Below are positions 4,386-38,559 of a stretch of 40,766 bases of DNA, in pieces (position 1 is the first letter of the stretch; each line of letters opens with the position of its first letter). The DNA comes from Kagunavirus LF7074P3. Position numbers and translations under genes: made by a program. Location of the stretch: sequence record OZ035791.1, one strand, 5' to 3'. Below the pieces are notes generated by a model. It was not told where the DNA came from, made no database searches, and was given only the letters and a program-made list of their open reading frames with translations.

Positions 4386-4448
4386 GTGCCTGTGATTATT
4401 CCAGTTATTCCACTCAATTGTAAATGTTGGAATAAACTATTCGAATAG

Positions 4449-4477
4449 TTGACTTTTCACCAAAAATGTGCTAAGCT
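4449..4477 (+). promoter_or_regulatory. sigma70-like promoter (TTGACT-N17-TAAGCT with TGn extended -10)
   Basis: TTGACT 4449-4454, 17-nt spacer, TGcTAAGCT; abutted upstream by perfect palindrome CTATTCGAATAG (4437-4448). Confidence 0.5.
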
Positions 4478-5909: not shown

Positions 5910-6878
5910 ATGTCTCTGTCAGATATGAAGGTTTATAACGACGATATCGTCGGTACCACTATCGAACTGCTTGGCCAGAAAACTGACCAGTTTAACGCAG
6001 CCTCCGGTGGCGCAATTGTACTGTCTACCGCTTCATGGCGCGGTGACTTCTCCCGTGAGTCTTTCTTTAACCAGATTGCCTCCGCTAAACGCCGCGTTGA
6101 CCGTTACGCCGATATCGCGTCTCAGGCAGCTACCGCGCTGACTCAGGGCGAGCATGTAGGCGTTAAAGTCGCTGGCGGCTTCGGACCGGTACTGTTCGAG
6201 CCTGCGCAAATGACCTGGCTGAACGAAGACCCGGCGAGCGCGATTCGTGCTATCTCCGAAGGGTTCTCTGACGCACTGTTAGCTGACCAGCTTAACACCG
6301 CTGTTGGTGCCGCCGTTGCCGCGGTATCAGGTCAGACTGCACTGGTTAACGATGTATCCGCGACCGCTGGCTTGACCCTGAACGTGCTGAACAACAGCCA
6401 CGCTAAATTCGGCGACCAGTCTCAGTTGTTGGTCACTGACATCATGACCGGCGCGGCCTACCACACTCTGGTGGACAAAGCGCTGACCAACGCAAACCAG
6501 TTGTTCGTTGCTGGCAACGTTATGGTTGTCGATGTTCTCGGCAAGCGTTACGTAATCTCTGACATTCCTGCGCTGTACGAGGCCGGTACTCCGAACAAGA
6601 CTAAGGTCCTGTCCGTAGTTGCAAACGGCATCATCGTTGATAATGCTTCTGACATTATCAGCAACATTGACACCAGCAACGGTAACACCCGCATCCAGAC
6701 CACCTGGCAGGCGGACTACAGCTTCGGCCTGAAACTGAAAGGCTACAGCTGGGACGTTACCAACGGCGGTAAATCTCCGCTGGACGCAGAACTGTTCACC
6801 GCGACTAACTGGGACAAAGCTGTTGCCGAGAACAAGCACACCCTCGGTACTCTGGCAATCGCCGACGCAGACCTGTAA
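5910..6878 (+). CDS. major capsid protein (positional call)
   Basis: 322-aa ORF after scaffold, followed by strong terminator; typical late-operon position. Confidence 0.65.
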   Translation: MSLSDMKVYNDDIVGTTIELLGQKTDQFNAASGGAIVLSTASWRGDFSRESFFNQIASAKRRVDRYADIASQAATALTQGEHVGVKVAGGFGPVLFEPAQMTWLNEDPASAIRAISEGFSDALLADQLNTAVGAAVAAVSGQTALVNDVSATAGLTLNVLNNSHAKFGDQSQLLVTDIMTGAAYHTLVDKALTNANQLFVAGNVMVVDVLGKRYVISDIPALYEAGTPNKTKVLSVVANGIIVDNASDIISNIDTSNGNTRIQTTWQADYSFGLKLKGYSWDVTNGGKSPLDAELFTATNWDKAVAENKHTLGTLAIADADL

Positions 6879-10597: not shown

Positions 10598-11152
10598 TTA
10601 CAAACCTAATTTTAAAGCAATGTCTATAACGTTCGATTTAACGTCACCTGGTAGGATGTAGGTGTCGTAATCTTTTACACCGCTAACATCATACAGATAA
10701 CCGCGGCTGTCCCCCTCAAACGTATAGCCTTCTCGGTGCAGGCGAACGATTCTTACATCATGACCCGCGGCGACGATAGGGGCCACTTCGCTGGCGAACC
10801 CGCCGTCGGACACTACAAAAACTTCGTTGCCGTCGGGCAAGTTTTCAGCAAGATACTTACCGAAATAATCACTACCAAGTACCGGTTTAATGAATTGCTC
10901 AGATATAGCAATCATGAACTGACGCCGCGACAAGCCATTAAGGAAGCCTTCTGGCTTTTCTTTCCGCGCTCGGTCGTCGTAGCCGTCGAGAAACTCGTGG
11001 TAAGCACCCGGGCCTAACGCTGCCAGAGCAATATTGAACATTGGATTCTTGAAACTGGTAGTTCCCTTCGCAAAGCCCATCTCTACCAGCGCCATAGCAA
11101 GTGTGTCTTTCCCGCAACCCGCAGGGCCATTAAGAATAATTACCATAGCCAT
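10598..11152 (-). CDS. P-loop nucleotide kinase (dNMP-kinase-like)
   Basis: 184-aa ORF with Walker A GPAGCGKDT at N-terminus (SGKDT resembles T4 gp1-type dNMP kinases); start overlaps upstream stop (TAATG). Confidence 0.55.
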   Translation of the reverse strand: MAMVIILNGPAGCGKDTLAMALVEMGFAKGTTSFKNPMFNIALAALGPGAYHEFLDGYDDRARKEKPEGFLNGLSRRQFMIAISEQFIKPVLGSDYFGKYLAENLPDGNEVFVVSDGGFASEVAPIVAAGHDVRIVRLHREGYTFEGDSRGYLYDVSGVKDYDTYILPGDVKSNVIDIALKLGL

Positions 11153-11637
11153 TACTTATCACTCCCGTGCGATTTTAAGTGTGTAGAGTTCCCGTTACAG
11201 TCGTATTCAGTAACCGCGTGAGTGGTTATACCGAGGCCACGGAAATGCTTTATTACCGCTGGCGAGTCGTCGAATGCGCACAAGATTCTTTCCAGCCCGA
11301 TAGTACGTAGCACCTCTTCCTTAATTACGATGTCTTTTCTGTTGTCGTGTTTGCTGCGCATGATTAACTGATAAAATTCGACGCGGTGGCGCTGCAACCA
11401 CATTCTGGTTTCTTTTTCCGCGTCATCACTACGGCCTGTTAAGATAATAACGGCATAGCGACGATTAAGGGCGTTACACAGTTCGATGTTATCTTTAATG
11501 GGTGCATCGTCTTTGCACGCCATGTTAAATGGTTTCCACGCCCAGGTTTCGCCGTAGTTATCTTTCGGCAGCAGGTGTAAACGATGAGCACCATCTGCCA
11601 ATGTCCCGTCTAAATCGAAAATCACAATATCTTTCAT
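11152..11637 (-). CDS. HAD-family phosphatase, T4 Pnk 3'-phosphatase-like
   Basis: 161-aa ORF; N-terminal DLDGTL (DxDGT nucleophile motif), later TGRSDD, RKDIVIKEEV and AFDDSP segments paralleling T4 polynucleotide kinase phosphatase domain (recall-based). Confidence 0.65.
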   Translation of the reverse strand: MKDIVIFDLDGTLADGAHRLHLLPKDNYGETWAWKPFNMACKDDAPIKDNIELCNALNRRYAVIILTGRSDDAEKETRMWLQRHRVEFYQLIMRSKHDNRKDIVIKEEVLRTIGLERILCAFDDSPAVIKHFRGLGITTHAVTEYDCNGNSTHLKSHGSDK

Positions 11638-13000: not shown

Positions 13001-13030
13001 TTTAAACCCCTTCATTGTTGGTGTAAGTGA

Positions 13031-13059
13031 ATAGTACCCTATTATATTGGGGTGTGCAA
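13031..13059 (-). promoter_or_regulatory. sigma70-like promoter TTGCAC-N17-TACTAT driving the minus-strand island
   Basis: Minus-strand reading cTTGCACaccccaatATAATAGGGTACTATTCAC; 32/34 identical to promoter at 34757-34790. Confidence 0.6.
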
Positions 13060-25220: not shown

Positions 25221-25505
25221 TTAACTATAATAGCTCGCTATTAGGTCGTCAACCTGTTTAAACGAACCAACGACAAAAACATTCGCACCACGTTTACGCA
25301 TCCGCTCGTGCTCACGTAACTGGTGTGGGTCTGGCTTCGTGTTTTCGTCTTTCTTAACCTCGACGAACAAGACGATGCCGCCGGGTAGAATTACCAGCAG
25401 ATCGGGAGCGCCGGAGCGCCCCTCATAGGAAAGTTTACGAACGAGGCCGCCGATAGCCTCGAATCGCTCTTTTGCGTATTTCTGGATGCGCCCCTCTTTA
25501 GTCAT
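25221..25505 (-). CDS. VRR-NUC domain nuclease (PD-(D/E)XK)
   Basis: 94 aa; ...GAPDLLVILPGGIVLFVEVKK... matches PD..(D/E)xK core of VRR-NUC family. Confidence 0.65.
   Translation of the reverse strand: MTKEGRIQKYAKERFEAIGGLVRKLSYEGRSGAPDLLVILPGGIVLFVEVKKDENTKPDPHQLREHERMRKRGANVFVVGSFKQVDDLIASYYS
25224..25252 (-). promoter_or_regulatory. sigma70-like promoter TTGACG-N17-TATAGT (minus strand) with ATAG-N4-CTATTAG dyad in spacer
   Basis: Minus-strand gTTGACGacctaatagcgagctatTATAGTt; lies inside 3' end of VRR-NUC ORF. Confidence 0.6.
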
Positions 25506-25654
25506 GAGCGCAGAATCCAGGTAATGAAAGCCCCGCCTAGAACGGCGACACCGGCAAACTTAAAGAACAGGCCATAACAGAACATCGCGGCTATTCCTGC
25601 ACCGAGTAGCAGTGCGAGCATGGTTACTATCACCCGAAATACGAACATTGTCAT
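25502..25654 (-). CDS. small membrane protein (50 aa)
   Basis: MTMFVFRVIVTMLALLLGAGIAAMFCYGLFFKFAGVAVLGGAFITWILRS; stop overlaps VRR-NUC ATG (ATGA). Confidence 0.35.
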   Translation of the reverse strand: MTMFVFRVIVTMLALLLGAGIAAMFCYGLFFKFAGVAVLGGAFITWILRS

Positions 25655-25740
25655 AATACGCACCCCTCCCGTTTCGTATGCGCGATACCGCAGCGAGGGC
25701 AGATTCGACAGTCTTCTTCGTAGAACCAGTAAATTTTCAT
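25651..25740 (-). CDS. small Cys-rich protein (29 aa)
   Basis: MKIYWFYEEDCRICPRCGIAHTKREGCVL; ATGA overlaps on both sides. Confidence 0.3.
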   Translation of the reverse strand: MKIYWFYEEDCRICPRCGIAHTKREGCVL

Positions 25741-25868
25741 TCCAGCACCCACAGATAAATTGCGATGAATATACCCAATACGGCTACCATCATGCCGTAT
25801 CGCCCCTCATGACAGTAGACACCCGCGGCGAATCCCGCCAGTACCGCAATAATCAGTTTACTTAGCAT
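25737..25868 (-). CDS. small membrane protein (43 aa)
   Basis: MLSKLIIAVLAGFAAGVYCHEGRYGMMVAVLGIFIAIYLWVLE; ATG lies 10 nt inside the 3' end of the polymerase ORF in another frame. Confidence 0.3.
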   Translation of the reverse strand: MLSKLIIAVLAGFAAGVYCHEGRYGMMVAVLGIFIAIYLWVLE

Positions 25869-28793: not shown

Positions 28794-28847
28794 CTTAATT
28801 TCTCGCTTTTCAGTTTACTCCTGGAAGCTGCCAGGCCAGTGATTAGA

Positions 28848-28876
28848 ACTATAATAGCTAACTATTCAGGTGTCAA
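28848..28876 (-). promoter_or_regulatory. sigma70-like promoter TTGACA-N17-TATAGT (minus strand) with ATAG-N4-CTATTCA dyad
   Basis: Minus-strand gTTGACAcctgaatagttagctatTATAGT; 55 nt upstream of SSB-like gene start. Confidence 0.7.
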
Positions 28877-30317: not shown

Positions 30318-30596
30318 TTACAAACATGCTCTGTTCTCCCACTGGTCAATTAAATGTCTGGTCTGGTGCTGGCAATGCATGGCCCATCCATACATCGACT
30401 CGAAGACATAAAAGTCAGGCTTGGCAAAAGTCGTGCGCTTAATCTGCGACACATGACGGCCTATATCTTTAGCCCGCGGTACTTTGCCTAAGTACGCCAT
30501 CTCTTCCATCTGGTGTGCACCGGACGGCGCACGCAATAACCATAGCGCCTCTGTGTTATCCCGCCGGTCAACGGCGCGGTATAGTTGGTAAATCAT
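30318..30596 (-). CDS. hypothetical protein
   Basis: 92-aa ORF in leftward operon. Confidence 0.45.
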   Translation of the reverse strand: MIYQLYRAVDRRDNTEALWLLRAPSGAHQMEEMAYLGKVPRAKDIGRHVSQIKRTTFAKPDFYVFESMYGWAMHCQHQTRHLIDQWENRACL

Positions 30597-30639
30597 AATC
30601 CCGACCCTCAGTTAAAGCGGCCCGAAGGCCGCGAGATAA

Positions 30640-31107
30640 TTATTCTTCTTCGAAATACTTGTTCTTGATTGCCGTCAGGCGTTCCAGGTATTCAGCAAGG
30701 TCTTCGTCTTTAATCGCGGCAATCTTCATCTTCTTACCGGTGAACTCTTCCAGCAGTTCATCGGAATCATCGCACGCGGCGTCGCTCGGACCTTCGTTAA
30801 TTGCATCGTCGATAGCCTGAATCTGGTCACGCAGAGACTGGTAATCTACTTCTTCCTTCTCTTCCGGTTCTGGCGTCGGTTCCTCTACTTTAGATTTACG
30901 CGGCTTGCGTTTCGGCTTCTCTTCTTCTGCTGGTTTAGTGTCAACGATGTCTTCACCTTCAACCGGGATTTCTTTTGTTGCTTCTTTTGCAACATCAGGC
31001 TCGGTTGTTGCGGTTTCAGCAACGACAACTTGTTTCGCGCTGTTCGCAGCAATCAGTTCATGGGCTACTACGAAACGTTCCAGTAATTTTAAGAATTGGT
31101 CTAACAT
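30640..31107 (-). CDS. highly acidic hypothetical protein
   Basis: 155 aa, long Glu/Asp-rich stretches with one KRKPRKSK patch; first gene downstream of leftward promoter 31139-31168; RBS GAGGAG. Confidence 0.5.
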   Translation of the reverse strand: MLDQFLKLLERFVVAHELIAANSAKQVVVAETATTEPDVAKEATKEIPVEGEDIVDTKPAEEEKPKRKPRKSKVEEPTPEPEEKEEVDYQSLRDQIQAIDDAINEGPSDAACDDSDELLEEFTGKKMKIAAIKDEDLAEYLERLTAIKNKYFEEE

Positions 31108-31138
31108 TTGTTTCTCTCCTCTCGTTTGGTATGGGTTA

Positions 31139-31168
31139 ACTATAATAGCGAACTATTCATGATGTCAA
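31139..31168 (-). promoter_or_regulatory. sigma70-like promoter TTGACA-N18-TATAGT (minus strand) with ATAG-N4-CTATTCA dyad
   Basis: Minus-strand aTTGACAtcatgaatagttcgctattATAGT. Confidence 0.65.
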
Positions 31169-31173
31169 TGGGC

Positions 31174-31204
31174 TTTTCTAAAATAATTAATATGGTACTA
31201 TTCA
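31174..31204 (+). promoter_or_regulatory. candidate rightward promoter/operator for cro-like gene
   Basis: ATAT-ggta-CTATTCA dyad (31190-31204) with TACTAT -10-like hexamer; -35 poorly defined. Confidence 0.3.
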
Positions 31205-31232
31205 CATATCAACTGACTAAGGAGTAATTGAC

Positions 31233-31448
31233 ATGCAACCATCTGAACTAGGCATCCGTGTAGAGCAACGCCGTAAAGAACTCGGTATCTCCCAGCGCCA
31301 TCTGGCTGTCCTGGCCGGTGTTTCCCAAGGCGCGATTAACCAGCTGGCACTTGGAGTAACTCAGGACGTCCGCCCGGCGACGCTGTTTAAACTGGCGGAA
31401 GTGCTGGAAGTAGACGCCAAGTGGCTGGCGTTCGGTGAAGGGGCTTAA
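31233..31448 (+). CDS. Cro/CI-type (XRE-family) HTH DNA-binding protein
   Basis: 71 aa; ...ELGISQRHLAVLAGVSQGAINQL... HTH; RBS AGGAG; transcribed opposite to surrounding leftward genes. Confidence 0.75.
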   Translation: MQPSELGIRVEQRRKELGISQRHLAVLAGVSQGAINQLALGVTQDVRPATLFKLAEVLEVDAKWLAFGEGA

Positions 31449-31463
31449 CGCCCCTTTCTTTTT
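31439..31463 (+). terminator. rho-independent terminator (rightward only)
   Basis: AGGGGC-TTAAC-GCCCCT hairpin + TTTCTTTTT overlapping cro-like stop. Confidence 0.7.
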
Positions 31464-31465
31464 AC

Positions 31466-33673
31466 CTATTCCAAATCCTCTTCTGTCACCACCAGCATTT
31501 CATTCGGTTCGTATATTGTCTTCGGTCTTAGTCTATCCCCTATTCTTTCAGGTATACGATACGTTCTCGGTACTACTTCGCCATTAGCATCACAGCCTAG
31601 CATTAGTTCACCATCTTTCAGCATTTTATCAAGATGGGTGTTAGTCACAGAAAAGTCACCGGAACGGGCCACTATCTGCTGCTGAGTAAAACCGCGACCT
31701 GTGTCATCTGACTGTTGCAGGTCTTCCAGTGCCGAAAGTATCGACTCCTTCCTTACTTCATCCCTGCCGCGTTTAACTTCTTCCTTTACTTTTTGTTTAC
31801 CTTCGTTAGTTAACCCTTCTTCCCGCTCTTTCTCCTCGTCAGTTTTGAACGGCTCGAAGCCCCACGGCATCAGAACAAGCGCCTTGTGTGGTTCCGGCAG
31901 GTCGAGGTTTACGATTGTGCCGTATTCCTCTGTGCTGCCCAAGAACTCAACAGCACGGTACTCTTTCGGCGGTGGTGCTTCACGGAACTGTACAGACTCA
32001 AGTACCATGCCAACCGTTTTCTGTTGAGGCCCGTGCTTAAATTTCGAGTGGTATACGTTTATCTGACGGTCGGTTGCACGTTCTATTGTCAGTTCCACAT
32101 CGACACCCGCATACAGCGCCCCGCTGCCACGGGCTTTCTTTCCGCCCTTCGGTGTATGGTGGACGACGCCCACCGCGGCTTTAGTTGCGTCACGTACTTC
32201 TTTAAGGATGGCGATAACTTTACCCATGCCGATTGCCGTTGATGAACTGTTCTCGTCGAACTTATCAATCGTCATGGCCAGTGTCTGGTTAAGGGTGTCG
32301 AACGCAACCATCCCAATTGGCTCGTCACCCGCAGTTTCTCGCATTAGCTTAATCAGGCTTTTCAGTTTGCCAACTTCGCCCATATCGATGACATGTACAT
32401 AATCTTTACCTTCCTCGCCGTATTTAGCCGCGAGTGCATCAATACGGGTGCGTGTGGCAGCACCGCCCTCACCGTCAATATAGAAATGGTGGCAACGCTG
32501 TGTATCAGCGCCTGCAAACCGGTACCCGGCGGCGCTCAGGTACATCATACCCAGCGTATAGAATGATTTATATGTGCCGGATTCCCCGACGATGTCCCAG
32601 ATGCAATCCGACGGCATGTACCCTTCAACGACGAAATCAGCCTTTACCGGTTCAGGTAACTCGTCATCGTCTTCAAGGTCTTCCAGTGTACAAGTTACAG
32701 GCTCCTCGTTCTCTGTGCGGTGCAGTTCTTCAATCTCTTCATCCGGTAAATCAGGCAGAGCCGCACGAATGCTGTTAATACTGATAGGTTGCTTGTCTAC
32801 GTTAAGCTCGTCCGGAAGGCCGCACATACGCAGGGCCAAATGTTGTCGGCGGTTAAGCTCAGTGCAAGCACCGTTGTTTGTGTGCTGGCACACGAAGCGC
32901 ACTTCTTTACCGTCGAGCATGATGCTGGTGGAGCCTTTGCCGGTGTGCAGGTGTTCGTTAGGGCAAGGCACTTCGTACCCGCGACCGGAAGATAAAGCGT
33001 CAAGGCCAAGCTCCGCTTCGCAGAAATGCGCTATATCCGCGTTAAGCCCATGCTCATCGGCAGCAAGGGTCTTAGCTTCACGCTTACGCAACCCCATTTC
33101 TTCGGCTTTCTTGATGTACCGCTCGGCACGGATAACACGCCCTTCTGTAACCGTTATCTTCGACTCTTTATGCGGCAGGTAGATAAGGCGGTTGCCATCT
33201 TCTGTGCAGTGGTCGCGCAATGCTTCGTCTATTTCTAACTCAGCACAAATAGCACGTTGCACCATCCACGCGTCGTTAGAGTTAAACGGCGTGCGGGCCG
33301 GTACAAGAACGCGGAAAGCGTAGTCACCGTTTTTACACGCGTGCTGGTGCGACGCCGTTGTGTGCAGAATATTGAAGAACGGCGCGTTCTTGAATTTGCG
33401 GGTGAGGTCGCGGTACTGGGTACGGTTTAGATGGTCGAAATCGAACTTAACCACACTGTCTTCCAGAATCGCGTTCTTACGGCGACCGCCAACCGGCGCA
33501 ATAGCTTTCTGCTTAATCTTGGCCGCGTCGTACTCTTCCTTAGTCCATGACGGGTCTACGGACAGACGCTTCGATGTATCGCAGACATACTCTACAAACT
33601 GCTCCAGTGGCATTTCACGGGCTACCGGGTTTTTATCGAAAGTGTTACGCAGCGTTGCAAAAACAATATTCAT
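31466..33673 (-). CDS. DNA primase / RecA-like ATPase (primase-helicase-like) replication protein
   Basis: 735 aa; central Cys/His zinc-binding-like segment (CPNEHLHTGK...C), Walker A-like GESGTYKS and Walker B-like VAFDTL. Confidence 0.7.
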   Translation of the reverse strand: MNIVFATLRNTFDKNPVAREMPLEQFVEYVCDTSKRLSVDPSWTKEEYDAAKIKQKAIAPVGGRRKNAILEDSVVKFDFDHLNRTQYRDLTRKFKNAPFFNILHTTASHQHACKNGDYAFRVLVPARTPFNSNDAWMVQRAICAELEIDEALRDHCTEDGNRLIYLPHKESKITVTEGRVIRAERYIKKAEEMGLRKREAKTLAADEHGLNADIAHFCEAELGLDALSSGRGYEVPCPNEHLHTGKGSTSIMLDGKEVRFVCQHTNNGACTELNRRQHLALRMCGLPDELNVDKQPISINSIRAALPDLPDEEIEELHRTENEEPVTCTLEDLEDDDELPEPVKADFVVEGYMPSDCIWDIVGESGTYKSFYTLGMMYLSAAGYRFAGADTQRCHHFYIDGEGGAATRTRIDALAAKYGEEGKDYVHVIDMGEVGKLKSLIKLMRETAGDEPIGMVAFDTLNQTLAMTIDKFDENSSSTAIGMGKVIAILKEVRDATKAAVGVVHHTPKGGKKARGSGALYAGVDVELTIERATDRQINVYHSKFKHGPQQKTVGMVLESVQFREAPPPKEYRAVEFLGSTEEYGTIVNLDLPEPHKALVLMPWGFEPFKTDEEKEREEGLTNEGKQKVKEEVKRGRDEVRKESILSALEDLQQSDDTGRGFTQQQIVARSGDFSVTNTHLDKMLKDGELMLGCDANGEVVPRTYRIPERIGDRLRPKTIYEPNEMLVVTEEDLE

Positions 33674-33798
33674 TTCTTTTTCTCCGCGCGTTCTAAGGCT
33701 TCCTGCATACGACGCATTGCGCGGTTCATCTTTACCGGTGCGAAGAAATCAGCGCCGTGTTTCTGGCGGCGCAACTGTGGAACTATTAACTTCGTCAT
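33670..33798 (-). CDS. small basic protein (42 aa)
   Basis: RBS AAGGA; stop overlaps primase ATG (ATGA). Confidence 0.3.
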   Translation of the reverse strand: MTKLIVPQLRRQKHGADFFAPVKMNRAMRRMQEALERAEKKK

Positions 33799-33838
33799 TG
33801 TATAATCCTTGTGCTTACTTTGATGATTTGTGCTTCGG

Positions 33839-33869
33839 CCCCGACGTTCTAGCGTTGGGGTTTCTTTTT
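33839..33869 (+). terminator. plus-strand hairpin + T-tract inside leftward operon
   Basis: CCCCGACG-TTCTAG-CGTTGGGG (one G-U) followed by TTTCTTTTT; hairpin weaker on minus strand. Confidence 0.4.
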
Positions 33870-34158
33870 ACCGTTTAGCCAACTCTTCCAGCAAATTTTT
33901 ATACTCTTCAAAATATTCCTCGACCAAATCATCGCCGAAATAGAAGTCGATATACTCGAGATTATCTCTTACGTTAAGCGACGCAGACATGGTGCTTAGT
34001 TGGCGTAAGCTAATTAGCTTCATTTCTGTTTCTACACAGAAAGGCCGGTAGGTATCGAGGTGGCAAGAGATGTTGAAGCATAAAGCGAACTCTCCCGCCA
34101 CGGAGTGAACCATATACACTTCGTTTTCTGCTTTATTGTGGAAAATTACACCTTTCAT
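33868..34158 (-). CDS. hypothetical protein
   Basis: 96-aa ORF, ATGA overlap with upstream HTH gene. Confidence 0.45.
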   Translation of the reverse strand: MKGVIFHNKAENEVYMVHSVAGEFALCFNISCHLDTYRPFCVETEMKLISLRQLSTMSASLNVRDNLEYIDFYFGDDLVEEYFEEYKNLLEELAKR

Positions 34159-34337
34159 TTCACATTCTCCTTAATCCATTCTTCAACTTTATTACGGTCA
34201 AATGTACCTGGTAAACGGCGACCCATAACCTTAATACAACAATCAGGGAATTTACCACTGCGCAACCAGTTATTAATTGTCTGACGTGTTACCCCAATAC
34301 GCTCGGCTACTTCATTCTGGGTCATGTAATGTTGCAT
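34155..34337 (-). CDS. small HTH DNA-binding protein (AlpA/excisionase-like fold)
   Basis: 60 aa from ATG 34337 (RBS AGGAG); ...MTQNEVAERIGVTRQTINNWL...; track ORF to 34451 judged an extension across promoter DNA. Confidence 0.55.
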   Translation of the reverse strand: MQHYMTQNEVAERIGVTRQTINNWLRSGKFPDCCIKVMGRRLPGTFDRNKVEEWIKENVK

Positions 34338-34368
34338 TTTTATATCTCCTGTTTGTTTGGTGAAGCTG

Positions 34369-34397
34369 AGTATAGGATAGCGGGAATGTAAAAGCAA
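34369..34397 (-). promoter_or_regulatory. leftward early promoter TTGCTT-N17-TATACT
   Basis: Minus-strand hexamers with 17-nt spacer, about 25 nt upstream of ATG 34337. Confidence 0.5.
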
Positions 34398-34434
34398 CCA
34401 ATCCCTGCAATATTTAATCTTTACAAAAAAGTTA

Positions 34435-34464
34435 TTGAAAGTTCTTGACACATGTTTGTATAAT
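34435..34464 (+). promoter_or_regulatory. rightward promoter TTGAAA-N18-TATAAT
   Basis: Consensus -10 TATAAT at 34459-34464; divergent from leftward promoter; no ORF for about 350 nt downstream. Confidence 0.5.
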
Positions 34465-34491
34465 GGTTTTGGGACTTGTATATATTACGGA

Positions 34492-34523
34492 GTTGACGAA
34501 CCCTCCCTGAGGGATTCGTCAAC
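34492..34523. repeat. 32-bp near-perfect palindrome GTTGACGAAcCCTCcctGAGGGaTTCGTCAAC
   Basis: 14-bp arms with one bulge; read directly. Confidence 0.8.
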
Positions 34524-34663
34524 CCCTCCCAGACAGCTGAGATGCTTGTTTTAGGGTTTAAGGATAAGTGTATCTAAATCTCATTTAAAGAAGTAACCCA
34601 CTGAAATATCTACTGTTTCTTAATGTGCCGTAGATTCGCAACCGTAAAAATGTAACGATTATT

Positions 34664-34691
34664 GGGCAGGCTTAAGGCCTGCCCTTTAGTT
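34664..34691 (+). terminator. rho-independent terminator
   Basis: GGGCAGGC-TTAAG-GCCTGCCC hairpin followed by TTTAGTT. Confidence 0.6.
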
Positions 34692-34756
34692 ACCAAGTAA
34701 TAAGAATAAAGGCACAACCTTCCCCGAAGAATCGCAACGGCAGCGTAACTATTCTC

Positions 34757-34785
34757 TTGCACACCCCAACATAATAGGATACTAT
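34757..34785 (+). promoter_or_regulatory. sigma70-like promoter TTGCAC-N17-TACTAT with ATAG-N4-CTATTCA dyad
   Basis: cTTGCACaccccaacATAATAGGATACTATTCAC; near-identical copy on minus strand at 13027-13060. Confidence 0.65.
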
Positions 34786-34819
34786 TCACTTATCGGAACG
34801 AGACAGAGGAGTTGGGGTT

Positions 34820-35005
34820 ATGTTTAAGAAGGGTCAGTTGGTGAGAACCAGACACCATGGCAAAGGTGTAATTAAGCACGTTTCGCAGAGAGTTGCAGAT
34901 AGGTATCTTCTTACCAATCCGTATTGGGATTTTGATATGTATTTCCAGGGACGCGAAATAGTAGAGCTCATCGGCAACAATTTTAAATTCAAAGGGGCGA
35001 AGTGA
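34820..35005 (+). CDS. hypothetical small protein
   Basis: 61-aa ORF, RBS GAGGAG. Confidence 0.5.
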   Translation: MFKKGQLVRTRHHGKGVIKHVSQRVADRYLLTNPYWDFDMYFQGREIVELIGNNFKFKGAK

Positions 35006-35190
35006 TGGAAGAATTAATTTACGACGTATACGTCGACGGGGTCATAACAGAGACGACAAGTAATAAAGATTACGCAATAAAGCGGTATGTGTATTATGCC
35101 GCAGTGGTAGGAAGGATGGTAGAAGTGCGGGAGCAAACGGCATCGAATCATGATGCTCGTGCCGACGACTCTGAGGGAGGTTGCCGTTAA
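35005..35190 (+). CDS. hypothetical small protein
   Basis: ATG 35005 overlapping previous stop; RBS AGGGG. Confidence 0.45.
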   Translation: MEELIYDVYVDGVITETTSNKDYAIKRYVYYAAVVGRMVEVREQTASNHDARADDSEGGCR

Positions 35191-35345
35191 TGCGAATCCG
35201 TATAACTGACCGCAGGCTTATAGATTTCGGTATCTCGGTAGGTGATGTTTTTCTGGCGTTCAGCAGCAACCATTATGGTTTTATGATTGAGTACAAAGGG
35301 TCGTTATTGTTCGTGTATCGGGATGAATGTGAGGTTCTGGTATGA
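35190..35345 (+). CDS. hypothetical small protein (51 aa)
   Basis: TAATG overlap, RBS GAGGGAGG; not in ORF track. Confidence 0.4.
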   Translation: MRIRITDRRLIDFGISVGDVFLAFSSNHYGFMIEYKGSLLFVYRDECEVLV

Positions 35346-36003: not shown

Positions 36004-36032
36004 TTGCACACTAAGATAGAATAGGCTACTAT
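36004..36032 (+). promoter_or_regulatory. sigma70-like promoter TTGCAC-N17-TACTAT with ATAG-N4-CTATTCA dyad
   Basis: aCTTGCACactaagatagAATAGGCTACTATTCA, 32 nt upstream of gene at 36064. Confidence 0.6.
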
Positions 36033-36063
36033 TCATTTACACAAACGAGAGGGGAGACAGAAT

Positions 36064-38509: not shown

Positions 38510-38530
38510 TCTATTTTCTGCAATGACTAG

Positions 38531-38559
38531 TTGACTATTATCCTAGACCCTACTATATT
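38531..38559 (+). promoter_or_regulatory. sigma70-like promoter TTGACT-N17-TATATT
   Basis: Hexamers with 17-nt spacer, 34 nt upstream of ATG 38593. Confidence 0.55.

Follow-up and report, generated by a model that had tools for sequence, protein, structure and literature searches.

Why should a phage without a lysogenic cycle keep a Cro-like regulator? This question is raised by a small rightward gene in the genome of Kagunavirus LF7074P3 (sequence record OZ035791.1; the whole stretch of 40,766 nucleotides (nt) analyzed here is referred to as the window). Phages of the genus Kagunavirus (Guernseyvirinae) are obligately lytic siphoviruses of Escherichia coli, described as strictly lytic in the literature (PMC9825357). 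The gene encodes a helix-turn-helix (HTH) protein of 71 amino acids (aa), and an initial annotation of the window had described this locus as a compact switch-like arrangement, with a Cro-like gene, two operator dyads and back-to-back promoters. In the present study, the dyad has been found on at least seven promoters across the genome; therefore, the HTH locus is one node of a regulon, and the description of a self-contained switch does not hold. We propose that, instead of deciding locally between lysis and lysogeny, the Cro-like protein probably acts throughout the genome to restrain early and middle transcription.

The Cro-like gene and the dyad repeated across the genome

First, the HTH gene is real and constrained, since in a comparison with 19 distinct Kagunavirus alleles the ratio of nonsynonymous to synonymous polymorphism (pN/pS) is 0.02-0.13, with pS up to 0.30. 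The encoded protein matches the Pfam family HTH_3 (PF01381; E 2e-11), and also HTH_19 and HTH_31. In a phmmer search of the PDB, the best sequence match is 434 Cro (E 5.5e-7), which is also 71 aa long and shows 42% identity in the alignment, followed by the 434 repressor (1.3e-5). A scan of IMG/VR revealed 48% identity to the Cro proteins of 434-type lambdoid contigs, in which the recognition helix is different. The AlphaFold2 model contains five helices (residues 5-17, 21-28, 32-39, 48-57 and 62-66; mean predicted local distance difference test score 79). In a Foldseek search, this model was matched to 1pra, 2cro and 3cro with template modeling scores of 0.73-0.81, and the best matches included the N-terminal DNA-binding domain of the 434 repressor, SinR, HipB, 434 Cro and the controller proteins of restriction-modification (R-M) systems (ranks 6-8). 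By sequence and predicted fold, the Cro-like protein belongs to the 434 Cro/XRE family, in agreement with the initial annotation. The recognition helix, GVSQGAINQLALG, is unchanged even in alleles with an overall identity of only 77-80%, and a search of 5.8 billion proteins returned homologues with the same helix in phage-sized Guernseyvirinae contigs only and none outside this subfamily.

Second, the control region upstream of the gene carries a 17-nt repeat, TAATAGCGAACTATTCA at 31143-31159 and TAATATGGTACTATTCA at 31188-31204, the starts of which are 45 nt apart. The pair of dyads proposed earlier (31145-31159 and 31190-31204) is thus present with a shift of 2 nt, and its core is a 14-bp dyad, designated O1 for the left copy and O2 for the right copy (Table 1). 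The back-to-back promoters were also recovered. The leftward TTGACA promoter matches the consensus at 11 of 12 positions. The promoter of the HTH gene itself was not called by the consensus scan; from our own reading, TGgTACTAT is its probable extended -10 element, in which the TG is kept in relatives and the next base varies (g, a or c). Across 21 Kagunavirus sequences, the 114-nt control region diverges from the window by 2.6-6%, compared with 9-30% at the synonymous sites of the adjoining gene, and the arms of both dyads are invariant while their central bases are variable. The control region is unchanged even in several relatives in which the gene on its left side has been swapped.

Other candidate elements in this region were rejected. 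If the TATAAT inside the leftward promoters is read rightward, no -35 element is present at 31144, and only the site at 28828 scores, probably incidentally. An 8-bp inverted repeat, ATGTCAAT/ATTGACAT (31162-31169 and 31227-31234), is probably due to chance because its right arm varies in relatives.

Third, AATAG-N4-CTATT is the most frequent palindrome with 5-nt arms in the window, with six perfect copies and one copy with a single mismatch (31189). When up to 3 mismatches are allowed, the 17-mer occurs 7 times (0.09 expected), and the degenerate 14-mer yields 18 strand-matches (0.88 expected). Each dyad copy precedes a start codon on the matching strand by 20-70 nt and overlaps sigma-70-type promoter hexamers in one of two registers. 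In the first register, the dyad occupies the spacer of the leftward promoters at 25252, 28876 and 31168 (TTGAC[A/G]-17/18-TATAGT, 10-11 of 12 consensus positions). In the second register, its right arm serves as the -10 element of TTGCAC-17-TACTAT, which is leftward at 13030 and rightward at 34773 and 36020; the HTH gene's own promoter is of this type, without a usable -35 element. Depending on the register, the center of the dyad lies at approximately -12 or -18.

This pattern is shared by related phages. The 1.2 kb around the HTH gene show 92-96% identity to many Escherichia Kagunavirus phages, including LF7074P1, fBC-Eco01 and Bas71-76, and 80-90% identity to hundreds of Salmonella Jerseyvirus genomes. 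Seven perfect copies of the dyad were found at syntenic places in Kagunavirus Bas72, and five perfect TAATAG-N4-CTATTA copies were found in Jerseyvirus SETP7, together with two imperfect copies beside its HTH gene. The same pattern is present in LM02P1, which keeps 8 perfect dyads, and in an uncultured relative (L082). In Cornellvirus PhiSTP1 (L009), a variant, AATACT-N3-CTAAT, occupies seven intergenic places, including homologous promoters. This variant reads T-AATACT-N3-CTAAT-A (14245, 10615, 17935, 14308, 6938, 30295 and 31656) and, alternatively, can be taken as two direct copies of TAATA at a distance of 11 nt; each half differs by one base from the dyad of Kagunavirus and Jerseyvirus.

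The motif has been reported previously as the "phage promoter" predicted with PHIRE, tgAATAGTa-ccTATTat-T, with seven copies in fBC-Eco01 (PMC9825357); it also appears in PMC7203180, and both papers ascribe it to a phage-encoded RNA polymerase. In the literature library searched, we found no paper linking the motif to the HTH protein and none that studied the function of either. Gene and motif are already present in databases, although with vague or incorrect labels, and the novelty of the present study is the proposed reading that connects them.

Candidate proteins for the dyad

From its arrangement, the dyad behaves as a separate protein-binding site and not as a polymerase recognition element, because the palindrome occupies two registers and both strands, and because its arms are invariant whereas its center varies both between sites and between the 21 relatives. 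The element listed as a PHIRE promoter is read here as an operator superimposed on host-type promoters. The 68 candidate open reading frames (ORFs) on the presumed coding strand of the window were compared with three annotated relatives (Bas72, SETP7 and PhiSTP1), and those without a counterpart were scanned against Pfam. The window-specific ORFs encode a major capsid protein that differs from that of the relatives, a polynucleotide kinase/phosphatase pair and small unknown proteins.

Alternatively, the motif might be a positive promoter element, recognized by RNA polymerase jointly with a specificity factor made by the phage. In that case, the Cro-like protein would either be this factor, acting as an activator, or be unrelated to the motif. 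All copies are indeed at promoters, the Kagunavirus papers list the motif as a phage promoter, and the TTGCAC-17-TACTAT promoters might need help, since they match only 7 of 12 sigma-70 consensus positions and were missed by the consensus scan. However, neither the annotation of Bas72 nor the set of window-specific ORFs includes a phage RNA polymerase or sigma factor. Moreover, the promoter of a phage RNA polymerase would be expected at a constant distance from the transcription start, whereas this palindrome takes two registers relative to the -35 and -10 elements. Three of the dyad promoters are near consensus (10-11 of 12) and need no activator, and a protein centered at approximately -12 or -18 would generally block polymerase. 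Thus, we consider an activating role of the motif distinctly unlikely.

The HTH gene might also be an inert relic of the immunity region of a temperate ancestor, or an antitoxin-like or anti-defense HTH protein, in either case without a part in the transcriptional program of the phage itself. Its homology to 434 Cro, its fold resembling HipB/HigA antitoxins and R-M controller proteins, and the lytic nature of a phage group lacking CI and integrase are consistent with such an origin. However, the gene is under strong purifying selection, with a recognition helix that is strictly conserved down to 77% overall identity, and its position and control region are conserved across three genera. In addition, no toxin or R-M gene is adjacent, the neighbors being a primase-helicase and an acidic 155-aa protein; the likeness to HipB and HigA is one of fold only. 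A relic or an antitoxin-like function is therefore very unlikely and the least probable of these explanations.

We next turn to the protein that would bind the dyad. 434 Cro binds 14-bp operators (OR1; PDB 3CRO) with conserved outer bases, and the dyad has the same geometry, i.e. a 14-bp site with five conserved outer bp and a free center. The Cro-like protein is a candidate binder because its family binds dyads of this kind and because its own promoter belongs to the dyad set. It is also the only clear HTH regulator common to Kagunavirus, Jerseyvirus and Cornellvirus, in all three of which a repeated motif is found at homologous promoters; in PhiSTP1, an XRE-type HTH is present in one of the 42 non-structural proteins and an HTH_17 domain in none of them. 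On this basis, the chance that the Cro-like protein binds the dyad and represses its own, the divergent and five other promoters might be called even.

Several observations weigh against this assignment. The dyad is identical in Kagunavirus and Jerseyvirus, although the Cro-like proteins of the two genera are only 52% identical and differ in their recognition helices (SQGAINQ in Kagunavirus vs SQSLITH in Jerseyvirus). The Jerseyvirus helix resembles that of Cornellvirus (TQSAISH), although the Cornellvirus motif differs, and this motif, AATACT-N3-CTAAT, is not a clean palindrome and fits a symmetric dimer poorly. Furthermore, the two dyads near the HTH gene merely mirror the presence of two promoters there and are no special signature of autoregulation. 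Finally, the AATAG dyad is accompanied in Kagunavirus and Jerseyvirus by a second small DNA-binding protein, which is HTH_17/excisionase-like, 60 aa long and 80% identical between the two genera.

Accordingly, the dyads might be the operators of another phage protein, most likely this HTH_17 protein, made early from a dyad-free promoter; the Cro-like gene would then be one regulated member with a different target, e.g. host genes, or with local autoregulation only. HTH_17 is present in exactly the set of phages with AATAG-N4-CTATT, i.e. Kagunavirus and Jerseyvirus (442 phage records, with a nearly unchanged recognition helix), and was not detected in Cornellvirus, the motif of which differs; the Cro-like helix, by comparison, changes between Kagunavirus and Jerseyvirus over the same dyad. 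In RNA sequencing of the close relative K1B4, an HTH-domain gene, K1B4_008, was among four early genes (PMC12645636), and judged by gene order it is probably HTH_17. In the same data, a "specific DNA binding" gene adjoining an AAA-domain gene was among the middle genes (PMC12645636), and by gene order alone this is probably the Cro-like gene, which counts in favor of the Cro-like protein as a regulator. The best candidate promoter of the HTH_17/primase unit, TTGCTT-17-TATACT (34397..34369, from our own reading), is dyad-free.

However, the HTH_17 protein of LM02P1 is divergent (67% identical; VSPMTLNRW vs VTRQTINNW), yet this phage keeps its perfect dyads together with a Cro-like protein that is 98.6% identical. 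Cornellvirus has a repeated motif at homologous promoters without HTH_17, and the HTH_17 gene has no dyad at its own promoter, none having been found within approximately 400 nt upstream of its start. In general, small excisionase-type winged helices bind direct repeats or single sites and not 14-bp palindromes. The co-variation of helix and dyad thus speaks against the Cro-like protein in the comparison of Kagunavirus with Jerseyvirus and against HTH_17 in LM02P1, and in Cornellvirus it involves a variant, non-palindromic motif. Taken together, binding of the dyads by HTH_17 seems rather unlikely.

Known systems and the proposed mechanism

The Cro-like protein shares several features with 434 Cro and, more broadly, with lambda and P22 Cro. 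It is a homologous single-domain XRE HTH protein of 71 aa with about 40% identity, its candidate operators, dyads of 14 bp in which the outer bases are conserved and the center is free, overlap promoters in a divergent control region, and its predicted role is to turn down early promoters, including its own, in lytic growth. The differences are also clear. The initial annotation had stated that the genome has no CI-like partner or integrase, and this was confirmed: neither is annotated in Bas72 or was found among the window-specific ORFs (Pfam scan). The HTH_17 protein is, however, a possible partner regulator. An integrase is likewise absent, according to the literature, in fBC-Eco01 (PMC9825357) and has been reported absent in phage 590B. 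There is no PRM, and the phage is obligately lytic. Instead of the tripartite operators OR and OL, two sites 45 bp apart are found, one per promoter, and the candidate operators are spread over at least seven promoters. The HTH gene forms a monocistronic unit that ends in a terminator of its own and converges on the primase unit. The operator sequences also differ (ACAA-N6-TTGT for 434 Cro vs AATAG-N4-CTATT here). Because CI, a tripartite operator and an integrase are all lacking, this locus is not a lambdoid immunity switch.

Other systems resemble the dispersed sites more closely. The C1 repressor of P1, the gp71 stoperators of mycobacteriophage L5 and the c repressor of phiC31 also use one short site repeated at many promoters or transcription units. 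However, these repressors are generally known to maintain lysogeny, and no lysogeny functions were found here; the L5 sites are, moreover, known to be asymmetric and within transcription units, whereas the present sites are palindromes on promoters. A functional analogy is offered by p4 of the strictly lytic phage phi29, generally known as a small protein that binds inverted repeats at close divergent promoters and represses early promoters. p4 has an unrelated fold, also activates the late promoter and works with p6, whereas no activation site is evident in the window, where the pseudo-dyads at 4444 and 38526 (described below) overlap the -35 element. The R-M controller proteins C.AhdI and C.BclI have the XRE fold, and with two dyads of unequal strength ahead of its own gene, the Cro-like protein could, as in those systems, be expressed with a delay and limit its own synthesis; in the window, no R-M genes are under control and the sites are genome-wide. 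From these comparisons, the most plausible mode of action of the HTH locus is that of Cro in late lytic growth or of phi29 p4, with operators dispersed as in the P1 C1 regulon.

The transcriptional layout of the locus was also examined. The HTH gene had been described as the only rightward gene in the 23-34 kb region, and this agrees with the annotated relative Bas72, which has the same layout, with a leftward replication block and one rightward gene within it, labeled "transcriptional regulator". A plus-strand ORF at 25620-25865 was considered as a second rightward gene and rejected as a shadow ORF, as the small minus-strand ORFs that it overlaps are better conserved; the HTH gene is therefore the sole rightward gene in this region. 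Its intrinsic terminator was called on the plus strand only; on the minus strand, the same hairpin is followed by UUCACCGAACGCC and has no U tract, supporting the earlier view that it works only rightward. The end of the convergent primase-helicase gene, at 31466, abuts the T tract of this terminator. Because no leftward terminator was found between the primase-helicase gene and the HTH gene, leftward primase transcripts should extend in antisense over the HTH gene and into the unit that follows. The placement within the leftward replication operon is not supported as stated, as the HTH gene does not lie inside one operon but sits between two leftward units, the downstream one of which has its own strong promoter. 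The same convergent layout of the HTH and primase genes is found in Jerseyvirus, whereas in Cornellvirus the primase gene is on the same strand as the HTH gene, downstream of the HTH terminator. A conserved mechanism therefore cannot have antisense read-through at its core; interference of this kind may tune the timing in Kagunavirus and Jerseyvirus.

With these features in place, we infer that the Cro-like protein binds the dyad, represses by binding and thereby sets the timing of the transcriptional program. All dyad promoters would fire upon entry of the phage DNA. The HTH gene would be transcribed rightward from its weak extended -10 promoter up to its own terminator, and the 14-bp dyad would be the probable operator of the resulting Cro-type dimer. 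O1, in the spacer of the leftward promoter for the 155-aa protein/exonuclease unit, and O2, which covers the -10 element of the HTH gene, would be joined in the regulon by the five further dyad promoters (13030, 25229, 28853, 34773 and 36020). As the Cro-like protein accumulates, the dyad promoters would be turned down, including its own. The HTH_17/primase unit would escape, its best candidate promoter near 34.4 kb being free of the dyad, and antisense read-through from this unit may delay accumulation of the protein in Kagunavirus and Jerseyvirus. In its widest form, the model would be a repressor-only timing circuit for the whole subfamily, with graded operators on essentially every host-type promoter (perfect on the replication and early promoters, imperfect on the own promoter, and half-sites over the -35 elements of the late promoters at 4444 and 38526) and with read-through as a delay element in Kagunavirus and Jerseyvirus. 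This joint claim appears unlikely as a whole.

Phages of both Jerseyvirus and Kagunavirus are widely isolated with a view to therapy and biocontrol, and they have been proposed as a small chassis for phage engineering (BASEL preprint). Annotation pipelines label the HTH gene "transcriptional repressor", "DicA" or "CI"-like, so that it might be mistaken for a marker of lysogeny, and the repeated motif has been mislabeled as the promoter for a phage RNA polymerase that is not found in these phages. If the Cro-like protein controls the dyad, the temporal program of the subfamily could be read from sequence, the operator and the repressor would provide a simple handle for switching phage genes off, and a host expressing the protein should be protected against both dyad-sharing genera. 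Under the genome-wide repressor-only circuit, the pre-expressed protein should give an immunity-like, cross-genus resistance. We regard the present reading as a useful clarification and not as a surprise.

Neighboring genes and further features of the window

The features of the HTH locus and the dyad sites are listed in Table 1.

Table 1. Coordinates of the HTH locus, its neighbors and the dyad copies in the window
Feature	Position	Strand	Basis
Dyad on leftward TTGCAC-17-TACTAT; superinfection-immunity and nuclease cluster	13030..13043	-	Dyad and promoter scan
Dyad in spacer of leftward TTGACG-17-TATAGT (25252..25224); helicase unit	25229..25242	-	Dyad and promoter scan
Dyad in spacer of leftward TTGACA-17-TATAGT (28876..28848); single-stranded DNA-binding protein and DNA polymerase unit	28853..28866	-	
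Acidic 155-aa protein, divergent; first gene of the leftward unit of the O1 promoter (155-aa protein and exonuclease)	30640..31107	-	ORF
Leftward promoter TTGACA-18-TATAGT, 11/12 consensus; drives 30640-31107 and downstream genes	31168..31139	-	Consensus scan
Dyad O1, AATAG-CGAA-CTATT, perfect; in spacer of leftward promoter	31144..31157	.	Arms invariant, center variable in 21 relatives
Dyad O2, AATAT-GGTA-CTATT, one arm mismatch; overlaps -10 of the HTH gene's promoter	31189..31202	.	Arms invariant in relatives
Candidate extended -10 of the HTH gene, TGgTACTAT, without good -35	31193..31201	+	Authors' reading
Shine-Dalgarno sequence AAGGAG, 8 nt before ATG	31219..31224	+	Read from sequence; invariant in 21 Kagunavirus sequences
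Cro-like (XRE/HTH_3) gene, 71 aa	31233..31448	+	ORF, ATG start, Pfam, PDB search, AlphaFold2, Foldseek, pN/pS
Intrinsic terminator of the HTH gene, GAAGGGGCTTAACGCCCCTTT then CTTTTT	31437..31465	+	Plus strand only
Primase-helicase (AAA_25), convergent with the HTH gene	31466..33673	-	ORF, Pfam
Second small DNA-binding protein, 60 aa, HTH_17/excisionase-like	34155..34337	-	Pfam; in Kagunavirus and Jerseyvirus
Dyad over -10 of rightward TTGCAC-17-TACTAT; small early genes	34773..34786	+	
Dyad over -10 of rightward TTGCAC-17-TACTAT	36020..36033	+	

The 155-aa protein has no Pfam match and is very acidic, with a center rich in Lys, Glu and Pro; some records label it "13.88 kDa late protein". It adjoins the HTH gene divergently in Kagunavirus Bas72 as well. 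In Jerseyvirus SETP7 (74-83% identity) and Cornellvirus PhiSTP1 (42% identity), a single gene separates its homologue from the HTH gene, and the two are on opposite strands. On the other side of the locus, a rightward terminator (33837-33862, plus strand; 11-bp stem then TCTTTTT) lies inside the leftward HTH_17/primase unit and is positioned to halt antisense transcripts that escape the HTH gene's own terminator.

Beyond the seven dyad copies, the pseudo-dyads AATAG-TTGA-CTTTT (4444-4457, plus strand) and ACTAG-TTGA-CTATT (38526-38539, plus strand) were observed, and a further one is present at 41001 in SETP7. Their center and right arm form the -35 element TTGACT of the rightward promoters TTGACT-17-TAAGCT and TTGACT-17-TATATT, which precede late, lysis and structural gene blocks. 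The pseudo-dyads may be low-affinity sites of the same regulator.

The heptamer AACGAGA stands directly before a purine-rich Shine-Dalgarno sequence in four promoter-proximal leaders (34797, 36044 and 38572 on the plus strand and 31126 on the minus strand), which account for four of its nine occurrences in the window. The leader of the HTH gene lacks it, and Jerseyvirus leaders have it. Upstream of the dyad promoter at 34773, the segment 34435-34695 (plus strand) contains a dyad-free, near-consensus promoter, TTGAAA-18-TATAAT (11/12), followed by approximately 200 nt without a convincing ORF. A scan of 30500-35200 against Rfam gave no match. Strong folding is predicted for the RNA of this segment (-70 kcal/mol, z -4.6), including a long hairpin at approximately 34491-34523 and a terminator-like hairpin with a weak U tract at 34664-34684; an early leader or a small RNA could be encoded here.

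The major capsid gene (5910-6878, plus strand) is of the Gp13-like type (PF20036, 8e-105) and, because it has no tblastn match in the three comparison genomes, it points to a mosaic replacement within an otherwise Kagunavirus backbone. At 10598-11637 (minus strand), downstream in the unit of the 13030 dyad promoter, two genes without a counterpart in Bas72, SETP7 or PhiSTP1 encode a P-loop kinase-like protein (weak AAA_18 match) and a protein with the HAD domain of polynucleotide kinase-phosphatase (PF25109, 3.6e-19), and together these genes look like an RNA or DNA end-repair pair.

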